64,000 bases of DNA from assembly GCA_036172245.1 (NCBI GenBank), contig JAYWIR010000044.1, positions 868,001-932,000 of the forward strand, given 5' to 3'. Source of the DNA: Raillietiella orientalis. Lineage: Eukaryota. The notes beneath the pieces are model-generated. The model ran no database searches. It was not told where the DNA came from and was given only the letters and a program-made list of their open reading frames with translations. This document shows, piece by piece, positions 3,980-32,985 of the stretch. The position numbers were made by a program, and so were the translations under genes. Position 1 is the stretch's first letter. Each line of letters begins with the position of its first letter.

Positions 3980-5600
3980 TGGCACGAGAGGCGAGCCGGC
4001 GTCCTGTGCTACCGACTCCCCTGCCATCATCCGCCCGCTCTCCCGCGTCCTTTCAGACTCCTTCCCGTCGCCCTGCAACACGCGTTCGAGTGAGGACAGG
4101 TTCAAGGACAGAAGAGGAAGGGACGACGGATGGACCATCCACCCATTCCGCCCTTTCGACCGATCTCCTCGTTCTTTTTGAAAATCGCGCTGTGGATCCG
4201 CCTGAAGGACTTGCGTCGTAGCGGAGGTCTCGGCCTCCTGACGCTGCACCGCCTGAGGCAACAGCTCCAGTGGACGGCGCTCGCCCTAGAGGCGAAGTCG
4301 TGGAGCACGAACTGGTGCGAGCCCGCGCGACACCTGGTCAAGCGAGCCACCGGCTACGCGGGACTGTCTTCGTTCCTGGCGCAGCGGCGCAGACGAAACG
4401 TGTCCAGCTGCGCAGTGCGGCTCCGGCGAATGGCCAAGCTGACCAAAACCAACAACTGGATCTTCTTGCAGCTCGCCAACGGTAGCGCCTGGTTGCAGGA
4501 AACAGTCTGCACGTGGGCCAAGGACAACGGAGCGCGCCCGGAAATGCGGCGGCGACTGCCGCGCTCCCCCTACAACACCCGCTCGCTGCAGGACGTCATC
4601 GTGCAGCCCCACCACGTGTGCGTGGGCGCAACGAGCCTCCCTAGCCGCAGCAGTGCCGTACCTCAGGGAGCAGTAACTGGGCAGTAACCAGCCGGCCGAA
4701 TGGCAGGGCAGTTGCGAAGCACGTCTTCGGACGAAGGAATGAGGTGGTTGTTCGACCACGGGGAGGCTCACGGAAACCGCAACCCCAAGTGGTCTACCGA
4801 AAGGATTGTAGCGGTGAGGTGAGCTGCTGGGAATCCCACAGGACGATCCGTCCAGTTGCCCCTCAGTGCTGAAGAACAACGGGATCCTCCCCGTGAAGTG
4901 GAAGGAGTCGGCCCTTCTGCTGCTGCACTGGGGTCACTCGTCCAACGCCTGCCGCTCTCGCTGGATCCGGGGGCTGTGGACCCGAACTGCGGCGGGCGTG
5001 GGAAACGGGGAATCCCAGCTTTCGCATCTGCTCGTAGACTGCGTTGCGCTCCGGACCCTGCGCTTGCGTTACGCAACGGCCCTTGGTGCACCGACGGGCA
5101 ATCGCAGGTGACGCGTCTTCGTGCGCGATGCCCTTTCGCCTGGCGCATGCCCAGCAGCTCTTTGCTTCTGCCTACGCGGGATCGCGGCGGCCTGGAGCTA
5201 CGCGAGGGGAGGACGGCACGATGGGGATGTCACCTGCCCTTGGCCCTGCGCTTCCTGCGGACGGCAGCAAGATGGTGGCCCCAGCTGAGGCATACTCGGG
5301 TGGAAACTTTCCGTCATCCTGGAAAGGATGCAGAAGACGTCCTCTGAAACCCGGTGATATCTTTCCTGACCGTCCCTGACCTTTTTTTGCACACATTTTT
5401 TGATTTGATTTTGGTTTTTGTTCGCCCCTTCCCCCTCCGCCGGGCGGCGAGGCGAACCTCGCCGGCCTGGAGCAGCACTTCCCGTTTACTCGGCAGGTTC
5501 CGAGCATTTTCGGACGATGTAGGGCAGATGGCCCCCCTACACATGTATGTATGCTTATTATTTTTATAAGAAACGTCGCGCCGCGAGCGGGTGATGAACC
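3980..5600 (+). mobile_element. Decayed 3' part of L1/Tx1-like non-LTR retrotransposon (post-RT region, C-terminal zinc finger, structured 3' UTR)
   Basis: IRLKDLRRSGGLGLL (post-RT GGLG motif); PNCGGRG / ESQLSHLLVDC zinc finger split over frames; T-rich tract, hairpins and terminal motif at 5568-5600. 5' boundary approximate. Confidence 0.8.
4277..5600 (+). repeat. 1.32-kb inverted repeat, arm 1 (partner 14006-15329)
   Basis: Reverse-complement match with constant coordinate sum 19606 at both ends (no net indel); roughly 98% identical by eye; mirrored ORF translations. Confidence 0.95.
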
Positions 5601-6899
5601 AGCTGGAAAAACTTAGCGGTCGCTCTTTCCGTACGGAGGTCAGGAAGCGGAAGAAGCAGAGTGATGTGGGGCGACGGGCGTCCCAGATGAACAAGAAGAG
5701 GAACTGCGGAAGTCAGTCGCCTCCTGGTTCCTGAAGGAGCTCCTGCAGTCGAAGAGGACGATCGAGCGGGACAAGACGATGGTCCTTCGGGAGGAGGTGC
5801 TCGTCTTCGACCTGCACGGGTTCGCTCGTGCCCTGGCTGCTCCCCTTTTTTCGGGTGTTTGTCGGCAAAGGAAGAGGTCCTGTGTCATTGGGTGTCGGCA
5901 GCCGGGTGACTCCAGTGCAGCGTCTTGGTCGTCGAGTCCGGTAGGAAGCGCACTCTTCGCACCTTGCCCGTAGTGACCTTCGCTCAGATTCGCCTTGGTG
6001 AAGCTCCTTCTGTTCTGCTTCTTTGCTGATGATTGCGGTGTAGTTTTCTGTCATGCGTGTATGGGGACGTTCTTTCATCATCAGGACTGTTTCTCTTCTT
6101 GGTCGTCTCCTCATCTTTTAATTCGTGTTTTTCCTGTATTAGTGACGTCGGGAGACTCTATAGCGTTTTTTGAGAAGGTGAATGTTAGTACTGACCACCT
6201 GTTTACCGAGGTTCTCGGCTCGCCTCCTTATGGCTGTCGGCACATGTAGGGTGCGATCTCGTGGCGTGACGCAGAGCGCGATGAGTATGGCGATGAACTT
6301 CGTAATCGAAATGGACGGAAAATTCTTCATTGCTGGATCGAGTATCCATTTGGAACATTCTTGTTGACGTCCTCCTCTGCTCCTTGTTTCTTGTTCACTC
6401 GCTCCCTTTTCCCCCTTGTTCGGTTAATATGCGGATGTAGTGCCTCCTAGGAAAAGACTTGTGGGGCTCTGCGGGGTCTGGGATCTGCCTGAAGGACTTT
6501 TTGGCGCTAATCCTGAATGCTAGCTCGGGAATCCTGACCATCCATAAGATGGTGCTGCACGCTTTTTGCCCTCTGTGGCACCATACGGACTCGCCGCTGG
6601 TGGATTCGGTCACGCTACATACTCCGGAGTTTTTTTCTCCAGGATCTGCCGGGGCATTTATTATTAAAATTTTAACAAATTAAAATTTCATAATAAAGTT
6701 GGAAGTTTTTCAGGCAGAACGCGTGGTTCTGCCTATCTTGTAACACTTGTGTTTACCGGCCATCAGACCGGTGAGGTACTCTTCCCTTGCGAAGGGGAAG
6801 GGGAAAACCAAAAAAAAAAAAAAAAAACACGAAAGGGAGGGTAATTTTTTACGGAGAAGGGAGTGATGAGAAGGAATCACAGTTCGCTGCGAGAGGTCC

Positions 6900-7275
6900 T
6901 CTGCATCCGAGTTTGGATGCACACAAGTGTCTGCCGAATTTTTATTAGCCGGGAACATCGGAAAGCCTTCTCCATGGAGATGGCTACCCAGTGAATGGCA
7001 TTCCGGCTGCTGAGGCCTCTCCTCGACGCAGTCTACTTCTCCAGGAGCAACAGTGATCCCTTTCCTTACCCTCTCACCTTTTCTTTTCTTTTTGTTTAGT
7101 TTTTTGTTTATTCTCCTTCCCTCTGCTGCCGTGGTGGACCGTACCGTTCTGCGAACTGGTGACCCGGCAGGCTCTGTGTTTCTTCGTGCGTGGCTCTAGC
7201 ACTGGTCCAGCCACAGCACGTCTTTGTAAAAGTTCATTTTTTAATAAACGCCACGGCGAAACCCGGGTGAAAATC
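6900..7275 (+). mobile_element. 3' tail fragment of the same retroelement group
   Basis: T-rich tract, GTGGCT...AGCCAC hairpin, then AATAAA-cgccacggcgaaaccc-GGGTG at 7243-7269; 5' boundary approximate. Confidence 0.55.
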
Positions 7276-31659: not shown

Positions 31660-32164
31660 ATTACGAGGAGGAACCGGCACGCAGGCAAGAGGGGTTCGTC
31701 TCGGCAGCACAGGGGAACCACAGTTCCCCAGAGTTCGCCTGTAGCATCCCCAGCAGCTCTTTGCTGCTGCCTACGCGGGATTGCGGTGTCCTGGAGCTAC
31801 TCGAGAGGAGGTCGGCACGAGATGTCCTTTGCTCTGAGCTTCATGAAGACGGGAGCAAGATAATCCCACCTGGGACATACTCAGAAGGAACTTGCAGGCA
31901 TCCTAGAAAGGATGCAGAGGACGCCCTCCAGCATCCGGTGATCCCTTGCCGGACCCTCCCAATTTTTTGTATATATTTTTTTTGTTTTATTTTTTTTTCG
32001 GTTGCCCCCTCACCCTCCGCTTCCGAGGAGAACCTCGTTGGCCTGAGCGCCGGTTACTCAACAGGTTTCGAACTTTGTCGGACGATGTAGGGCTGATGGA
32101 CCTACGCCTCTATGTTTATTATTATTTTTTAAATAAACACTTCGGCGCTACCGGGCGTTAAACC
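31660..32164 (+). mobile_element. 3' fragment of the L1/Tx1-like family with four-hairpin UTR
   Basis: LLPTRDCGVLELLE...RHPRKDAEDAL matches LLPTRDRGGLELRE...RHPGKDAEDVL at 5160-5345; UTR and terminal motif conserved. Confidence 0.85.
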
Positions 32165-32339
32165 TTACTACACGCACTCTCGGGTGGCGTGGACAAAGGG
32201 CTTCTTCGTAATCCCCACCTAAGGAGACAACCAGTTCTTCAGCACACGTTGAGAACCACCAAAAAAAAAAAGCAGGGAGGAAAGCAGCGAAAGCGGAAGA
32301 ACAAGGACATTTCCTATCATTCTAGGCCAACCGTGGCAC

Positions 32340-32985
32340 CCTCCCCCTCAGGTGGCGAGAGTTGGCGCTACTGGTGTTGCATGAACGAATCTCATGCAAA
32401 GCGCGCCTCCACCACTAGACACGGGGGAGCGAGGACGCTCAGTGTGGGAAGAAGGAGAGCTTTTCGCACCTGCTGTTGGACTGTGCTGCCTTCCGACCTA
32501 ATTGGGATTGCCTTTCGGCGACCCTAGGTATCCAGTAGGCAGCCCCAGGGACATTTTCAGACTCCTCTTCGTGAGGGGTGTTGCGCTGCCGCCAGCCGCG
32601 TCCCTAGAAGCTCTCCGTTGTCTTCGCGGGATCGCGGTGTCCTGGAACGTGGGGAGAGGTCGGAATGGCAGGGATGTCATCCACTGGGTGCGGATCTTCC
32701 AGAGTACCGACTCGAGACGGCATCACCTGGGCGAGGCACGGACTGAACTTGCCGGCATCCTGAACAGGCTTGCAGAGGATGCAGAGGACGGCTGCCAGAG
32801 GACTGTCTTGCCCCCCCCCTCCCGTGTAAAACTTCCTCTTTCCTGTTTTGTGTTTTCCCCACCCCCACGCTGCTGAAGCGGATCTTGCAGATCCGCTTCG
32901 GCAGGTCTGCGCAGGTCTTCGGCACATTTCCATGTATTTTGATTATATTGATATAATAAATGCCACGGCACAACCGGGTGGTAAT
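32340..32985 (+). mobile_element. 3' fragment of a related subfamily
   Basis: CLRGIAVSW...ELAGILNRLAEDAED; 15-bp hairpin at 32871-32903; terminal motif at 32955-32980. Confidence 0.75.

Follow-up and report, generated by a model that had tools for sequence, protein, structure and literature searches.

The 3′ ends of long interspersed nuclear elements (LINEs) consist of poly(A), of repeats or of neither, and outside mammalian L1 a stringent 3′ tail is the rule (PMC2881922). The stringent L2 elements UnaL2, ZfL2-1 and ZfL2-2 carry a 3′ stem-loop with an exchangeable stem and a conserved loop recognized by the protein of open reading frame 2 (ORF2p), and end in short tandem repeats (PMC4176376). 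In stringent L1 elements of plants and algae, such as LINE1-1_ZM and L1-1_CR, the last ~45 nt are conserved and structured while the body has diverged (PMC3472496, PMC3747384), and nine flowering-plant and five green-algal L1 families are tabulated without a 3′ repeat (PMC3472496). The shift from stringent to poly(A)-only recognition, as in mammalian L1, is a named open question (PMC4176376, PMC3472496). Here we analyse a stretch of 64,000 nt from Raillietiella orientalis (contig JAYWIR010000044.1, positions 868,001 to 932,000, forward strand), called the window below, in which a sequence-only reading had noticed an L1/Tx1-like family that lacks poly(A) and ends in a terminal motif of fixed spacing. 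These elements work like a stringent LINE and belong to the L1 clade, with binding of the tail by ORF2p as a putative part of that likeness.

The terminal motif has the consensus AATAAA-N3-CCCGG-N5-CCGGG-TG-NNAA. The eight window sites first reported are all correct in position and strand, in their hexamers (AATAAA five times, AAGAAA twice, AGTGAA once) and in the spacer of 15 nt (16 nt at 7243) that leads to GGGTG, GGGCG or GGTTG, and none of them is followed by poly(A); a ninth copy, at 6662(-), had been overlooked. The spacer contains the inverted repeat CCCGG-N5-CCGGG. With up to three mismatches, a 26-nt consensus matches the window nine times, versus 0.00 expected from 100 shuffles. The proposed genome scan likewise revealed strong enrichment, the strict pattern having 1,716 exact matches in the 210-Mb genome versus 0 for a reversed control. 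Sampled sequence of 811 kb, picked for the presence of a motif or a reverse transcriptase (RT) and hence non-random, holds 180 motifs versus 0 after shuffling. Further genomic termini include at least 189 of a family with a 16-nt spacer and two lists of single-position variants (108 and 153 matches). Across families, the hexamer is conserved at 96-100% per position. The copies at 5568 and 14038 are 98% identical across 1,324 nt, and therefore the eight sites do not represent eight independent families.

The sequence-only reading had left two explanations for the motif, a 3′ recognition or priming signal and a conserved insertion target, and had proposed mapping target-site duplications (TSDs). 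We accepted a candidate duplication when the reconstructed empty site matched an uninterrupted paralogue; a plain TSD search lacking this check is noisy (score of at least 12 in 23 real versus 5 null of 170). A TSD and an empty site were accepted for 41 of 176 motifs, the duplication starting 4 nt after GGGTG in 22 of the 41, and the reconstructed empty sites lack the motif. A curated set of 35 copies was formed from the 41 by removing 11 (tandem-junction matches, negative offsets and three doubtful cases) and adding five strong TSDs that lack an empty site. Within this set the tail ends in AA in 31 copies, and because the target has AA to the left of the TSD in only one of the 35, the AA of the tail is element-derived. 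The first TSD base is C in 17 copies, A in 12, T in five and G in one. Thus, the AACC-like ending that had been described does exist, but not as a single unit: since TSDs begin directly after NNAA, it joins the AA of the element to a CC of the target.

The smallest insertions make the same point. Three copies of ~24-28 nt (loci L124, L126 and L132) consist of the hairpin and tail only and lie inside a TSD, as does a 20-nt insert of hairpin and tail only at locus L185. One window copy, at 7243, measures 227 bp, is flanked by a perfect 15-bp TSD and lies within ORF2 of the 6662(-) copy. The motif forms the 3′ end of the element itself, and a tail of fixed length (4 nt, NNAA) separates it from the TSD. 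This geometry, together with the hairpin-only insertions, supports a 3′ recognition or priming signal as its putative role.

A host repeat or RNA gene used as a conserved insertion target could account for a motif whose position is fixed beside diverged coding regions, and Tx1-clade elements are often target-specific (PMC4494074). This explanation is nevertheless hardly credible and is effectively excluded, as the TSDs lie outside the motif, the empty sites and hairpin-only inserts are as described above, and the 7243 copy is nested with its perfect TSD in the ORF2 of another element. Moreover, a sense ORF2 C-terminus lies upstream of 158 of the 173 motifs that have 900 nt of upstream sequence, and the other 15 are, by eye, mostly short truncated copies with the untranslated region (UTR) of the family. 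Rfam gave no match in the window at gathering score, and at six loci only three weak matches far below that score; for lack of matches at gathering score, the motif is assigned to no known ribozyme or small RNA. Two further candidates were rejected. The motifs often face one another, but they are not terminal inverted repeats of a DNA transposon because every motif is preceded by a separate ORF2 or UTR and is accompanied by a TSD that belongs to it alone. Double priming was considered for the head-to-head pair 31605(-)/32132(+), whose flanks form no TSD.

Upstream of the window motifs lie broken ORF2 frames of L1/Tx1 type, and a protein search of the genome found many long open frames. In the sampled sequence, full-length elements of this lineage, termed lineage A, measure 5.5-5.9 kb, share the 5′ word GGACGTGT and encode a zinc-knuckle ORF1 and an ORF2 of ~1,200 aa with an apurinic/apyrimidinic-type (APE) endonuclease, an RT and a weak zf-RVT. 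In Pfam searches, Exo_endo_phos and RVT_1 score above the cut-off in three of four ORF2s scanned, the fourth being cut at its start; zf-RVT falls below the cut-off in two ORF2s and zf-CCHC of ORF1 just below it. A search of solved structures ranks human L1 ORF2p first (E 8.5e-52), compared with E 7e-16 for R2. The copies also carry the signature of target-primed reverse transcription, with 5′ truncation, variable TSDs of 7-16 bp and lengths from 20 nt to 5.9 kb. The L1/Tx1 assignment therefore holds on its Pfam domains, its closest structure and its L1/Tx1-type database matches, and the carriers belong to the L1 clade in the broad sense that includes Tx1.

In a quick IQ-TREE analysis of 71 RT rows, made without labelled L1, Tx1 or outgroup references, a single clade (Shimodaira-Hasegawa-like approximate likelihood ratio, SH-aLRT, 100) contains all 27 RTs that are followed by a motif at a distance of 1.7-1.95 kb, together with six rows whose end is interrupted or beyond the stretch. 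The 27 have a median RT identity of 69%, and the carriers, which had been taken for a single family, are a radiation of many. All genome rows in the tree stand apart from all database rows. The best database relatives of the lineage-A protein share 25-34% identity with it, including a zebrafish pol-like protein (BAC82609.1), and none exceeds 34%; the best value, 33.6%, belongs to an alligator protein named for TX1 ('TX1 149 kDa'). As a side observation, the part of the endonuclease that links the GDFN motif to the DH motif is smaller by ~15 residues in lineage A (e.g. L066:2862-6506) than in the database relatives.

The elements are likely candidates for membership of Tx1 in the strict sense. 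Described Tx1-clade LINEs (Xenopus Tx1L in Tx1D; Keno, Kibi and Koshi; crocodilian Tx1-Mar and Tx1-8_Crp) similarly have an ORF1 zinc knuckle and an ORF2 of APE endonuclease, RT and C-terminal zinc finger, and similarly show 7-16-bp TSDs, a preference for other transposons and tandem copies that share a TSD (PMC4494074, PMC1950540). The present elements differ in their RT identity of ~30%, in their arthropod host, in their targets, which are members of the same LINE radiation, and in their fixed end of two or three As. SINEU, thought to be mobilized by Tx1-Mar, has a poly(A) tail (PMC4494074, PMC1950540), and L1 is described as sporadic in protostomes outside mosquitoes and flies (PMC5203782).

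For the DNA copies, the description of the elements as lacking poly(A) stands. The longest A run within 40 nt of a motif is at most 5 in 177 of 180 cases, with a maximum of 8. Genome-wide, three strict termini run on into A7 versus at least 1,569 that end in NNAA, so that copies do not usually continue into poly(A). Lineage A thus shows neither the poly(A) tail nor the T-tract priming of relaxed, mammalian-type L1 elements. Ordinary poly(A)-tailed L1s whose tails have decayed or collapsed in the assembly would fit the many old and broken window copies, but this explanation is very improbable and, like the insertion target, effectively excluded: young copies with an open 1,200-aa ORF2 and perfect TSDs carry exactly NNAA, and the assembly retains long homopolymers (T26 in the window, A15 at locus L187).

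For the RNA, the same description is probably wrong. A looser search for A runs gave 11 matches versus 6 in the control, and eight of the 11 were inspected. The L185 insert carries T+A12, and a 1.9-kb copy at L187 carries T+A15, each within a perfect 11-bp TSD. At three further loci a recognizable motif is followed by G+A9-13, with no TSD in range, and the remaining three are doubtful or unrelated. The A tails begin at the very position of the fixed tail, 21 nt beyond the hexamer, and a U-rich tract lies upstream of their start. A distance of 21 nt is within the usual window for cleavage after a polyadenylation signal. Because two copies carry A12 and A15 inside perfect TSDs, the element RNA is probably polyadenylated at the terminus, its tail normally not being copied. 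The R1-clade elements SART1Bm and R7Ag are comparable in that their 3′ UTR is recognized in trans and that poly(A) and UTR jointly set the start of reverse transcription; they differ in copying a stretch of poly(A) whose length varies (~20 nt in SART1Bm copies in the genome), as opposed to the two or three As seen here (PMC7265360).

Like other stringent-type LINEs, lineage A has a conserved, structured 3′ tail. Its structure was examined in an alignment of 36 representatives, comprising 17 cluster centroids and 19 high-scoring singletons from 67 clusters. A hairpin with the loop CUGCGN lies ~70-100 nt before the hexamer and covaries across families, with two-sided changes at all six of its base pairs (30 cells) and 84% pairing. 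None of 500 shuffles reached its score and slid controls scored far lower, although the helix was selected visually in the alignment, in which two rows are misaligned at this place. By this covariation, it resembles the stem-loop of stringent L2 elements (PMC4176376). Those elements belong to the L2 clade and end in tandem repeats, which are absent here; the present elements have at least two UTR hairpins, together with an invariant stem between AAUAAA and the end. That terminal stem is 96% paired and near invariant among the 36 representatives. In lineage A, a pseudoknot between loop and tail was not detected (mutual information of at most 0.15 bit).

A second lineage in the same genome ends in a similar way. 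The window holds a full-length, decayed element of this lineage B, which lacks the lineage-A motif and whose RT is 23-33% identical to those of lineage A. Its end has 55 genomic matches versus 0 in a control, and the A run is at most 4 in 29 of 30 fetched copies. The layout of 5 bp and 5 nt is that of lineage A, while two inner pairs differ and are still complementary; this likeness is one comparison that assumes the two ends to be homologous. For the window copy, RNAfold prefers another fold. Three side observations concern lineage B. Its termini (L151-L180) have recurring targets, with two words each found in several copies; one group of ~650-bp copies has an identical 5′ junction; and a pseudoknot between its CCCUU loop and the GGGG tail is a candidate structure. 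In addition, a 404-bp stretch occurs twice at 99.5% identity, upstream of the window element (33283-33686) and interrupting its RT (37001-37404), and is possibly a young non-autonomous insertion.

In the best model, which we consider moderately probable, polyadenylation just past the stem is combined with ORF2p on 3′-UTR structures, a start at fixed distance and a target set by the endonuclease. Specifically, the U-rich tract and AAUAAA would direct host cleavage and polyadenylation ~21-22 nt past the hexamer, just beyond the CCCGG/CCGGG stem. ORF2p would dock on structures of the 3′ UTR and begin target-primed reverse transcription at the second or third A of the tail, a position set by its constant distance from the stem, with no pairing of a T-tract primer to poly(A). 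Because the start would be set by this distance, new copies would end in two or three As and would regenerate an identical end. The target would be chosen separately and in a family-specific manner, probably by the APE endonuclease.

Several observations weigh against this model. In 12 of 30 pairs the two TSD copies are not identical, and in 5 of 7 informative cases the change lies in the 3′ copy, by our reading of the closest empty sites. Polyadenylation is suggested by two TSD-bounded A tails among eight A-run loci, and slippage of the RT or untemplated addition could also yield such tails; for SART1Bm, addition of the tail by the host and by the RT have both been raised (PMC7265360). The terminal stem shows a single double change in the 36 representatives, in the window 5568/14038 subfamily, and a change of the partner base is very rare in the two genome-wide lists of stem variants. 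RNAfold does not always choose this stem, and z-scores for the whole UTR span +1.0 to -5.1.

The genomic stem variants look like uncompensated decay, and covariation in the terminal stem of lineage A was not found in the 36 representatives or the two variant lists. The pairing of this stem within lineage A is therefore no more than a prediction. The motif might instead be borne by the element but read as sequence, either as a protein site on single-stranded RNA or as a palindromic DNA site used at second-strand synthesis or transcription. The invariant arms and the missing covariation within lineage A favor such a role. However, both bases of the closing pair are exchanged in the 5568/14038 subfamily (G-C to C-G), the stem of one family is lengthened to 6 bp around a loop of 4 nt, the inner pairs of lineage B are different yet complementary, and the loop bases vary freely. 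On balance, we regard recognition of the sequence instead of an RNA stem as improbable.

A less remote alternative, still unlikely in our judgment, is that the productive RNA reads through the end into the TSD and flank of the donor. Reverse transcription would again start at a fixed distance, the read-through bases would pair with the nicked target and so help to keep a family on its target, and the rare A tails would reflect slippage or a minor polyadenylated class. Many young copies form head-to-tail or nested arrays, a setting that makes read-through likely, family-typical flanks recur, and in other LINEs targeting is reported to be stronger when element and target are transcribed together (PMC4494074). 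The 3′ TSD copies that depart from the target, counted above, lean the same way, but we judge this lean too thin. Read-through leaves unexplained why every family, and lineage B as well, keeps the AATAAA hexamer at a constant spacing, and the A tails start exactly at the position of the fixed tail. Moreover, dispersed copies have unrelated flanks, and the TSD mismatch (~14 in some 360 nt by our estimate) is not clearly above age-related divergence.

The insertion sites show a sequence preference. In the family with the 16-nt spacer, the target begins with C in 96 of 100 listed copies, as counted by hand, and the target is a CGCCGAA-like word at non-homologous places, namely element 5′ ends, the antisense ORF2 start and sense ORF2. 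In several different host subfamilies, the RT codons for 'NADAKL' carry antisense insertions of another family, as full-length and as truncated copies. ORF2 sequence makes up 89 of 179 3′ flanks, in antisense orientation in 62 of these, with clustering at few codons; this sample is enriched for LINE arrays, and some repeated junctions may be segmental duplicates. Older dispersed families have only a weak A/C-rich preference. Families thus prefer their own targets, often inside their relatives. Separately, tens-of-kb stretches dense in young nested or tandem copies occur on the small contigs C129, C137 and C75 and in parts of C26, C35 and C13, and could be centromeric or heterochromatic islands by analogy with Zepp of Coccomyxa/Chlorella. 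Zepp is likewise an L1-clade element with clusters of nested copies (PMC3446292); it differs in its poly(A) end (PMC3472496) and in forming one cluster per chromosome, as against mutual targeting by many families and many dispersed copies here.

A broader proposal, which we put forward only tentatively and hold to be rather doubtful, is that the hairpin between AAUAAA and the cleavage site acts as a ruler, so that reverse transcription of a genuine poly(A) tail would begin at its second or third A without pairing between primer and template. Animal L1/Tx1 elements may have primed in this way for a long time, as two lineages only ~30% identical in RT would have the mode in common. No longer tied to T-tract pairing, the endonuclease could move on to new targets, giving a network of families that home on each other's conserved coding motifs and build up safe-harbour arrays for themselves.

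Individually, the ingredients of this system are known: stringent tails, LINE ends that have no tail, and Tx1 targeting of transposons. Human L1, whose ORF2p is the closest solved structure to that of lineage A, nicks TTTT/AA and primes from a T-tract on poly(A) (PMC1950540), whereas the targets here are C-rich and have no A tract. The plant and algal stringent L1 elements share the clade and the conserved, structured end; L1-1_CR is listed with a poly(A) end, and the accessible parts of these reports describe neither a fixed end of two or three As nor a hairpin inside the poly(A)-signal region (PMC3472496, PMC3747384). Neither this terminus nor a start fixed at two or three As was found described in the literature covered, which did not extend to Repbase, supplements and most subscription papers, above all for the 3′ ends of named Tx1 elements. 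A scan of metagenomes with the strict pattern gave three matches, none with a convincing ORF2 (best E 0.058), which we take as chance. An animal L1/Tx1 radiation with young open-ORF copies is available here that keeps a poly(A) signal, has a near base-exact end and needs no A-rich target. Therefore, the step from stringent to poly(A) recognition is testable through a 30-nt module, and many natural combinations of ORF2p, UTR and target are available for doing so. A compact recognition module combined with endonucleases of differing specificity would also be of interest for LINE-based tools for gene insertion.

Table 1. Lineage-A and lineage-B features of the window.
Feature	Position	Strand	Details
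5′-truncated lineage-A copy (ORF2 C-terminal part and 3′ UTR)	4196..5597	+	motif 5568-5593, tail ATGA
Ninth lineage-A copy	6633..8274	-	motif 6637-6662; interrupted by 7243 copy
Left copy of perfect 15-bp TSD of 7243 element	7032..7046	+	empty site in 4 paralogues
227-bp 5′-truncated copy, antisense within 6662(-) element	7047..7273	+	motif 7243-7269, tail AAAA
Upstream CTGCGA-loop hairpin of 7243 copy	7143-7160	+	
Right copy of same 15-bp TSD	7274..7288	+	directly after GGGTG-AAAA
Decayed lineage-A copy with RT and ORF2 C-terminus	14009..16633	-	motif 14013-14038, tail TTAA
Short 3′-UTR-only copy	17193..17355	+	motif 17326-17351, tail TCAA
5′-truncated copy	17600..18864	-	motif 17604-17629, tail ACAC
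Short 3′-UTR-only copy	31576..31717	-	motif 31580-31605, tail TCAA
5′-truncated copy	31734..32161	+	motif 32132-32157, tail TTAA
5′-truncated copy	32329..32984	+	motif 32955-32980, tail GTAA
15-bp TSD of lineage-B element	33986-34000 and 39584-39598		
Full-length decayed lineage-B element	34001..39583	+	ORF1 zinc knuckle, APE endonuclease, RT; no poly(A)
Lineage-B terminus	39545..39582	+	AATAAA, 5 nt, CCCAC-CCCTT-GTGGG, short G-rich tail, AAA

Some window copies have further peculiarities. The identity between the 5568 and 14038 copies stops at positions 4277 and 15329, upstream of which the ORF2 sequences are different; this breakpoint marks a chimera that arose through template switch or gene conversion. 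The 5568 copy and its 3′ flank occur three times within 25 kb and in both orientations (C44 ~848.7k, ~861.2k and window 5568), which is a local segmental duplication. Directly 5′ of the 17326(+) copy, an inverted terminal 25 nt of the same subfamily lacks AATAAA (17170-17195, minus strand), and no TSD was found around the pair. At 11779(+), a degenerate motif-like site follows a long U-rich tract; no lineage-A homology was found upstream, and the site may end another LINE.

Outside the retrotransposons, the window includes a host gene for a P4-type ATPase with very short introns (41186-46029, minus strand), whose product marks the host as an arthropod, since proteins of chelicerates, myriapods, crustaceans and insects all match it at 58-65% identity. 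The adjoining gene at ~40300-41000 (+), which has no Pfam match, has a likeness, judged by eye, to genes for CAP-domain proteins. An unrelated pair of 310-bp inverted repeats, 80% identical, lies at 20200-20509 and 51353-51663.

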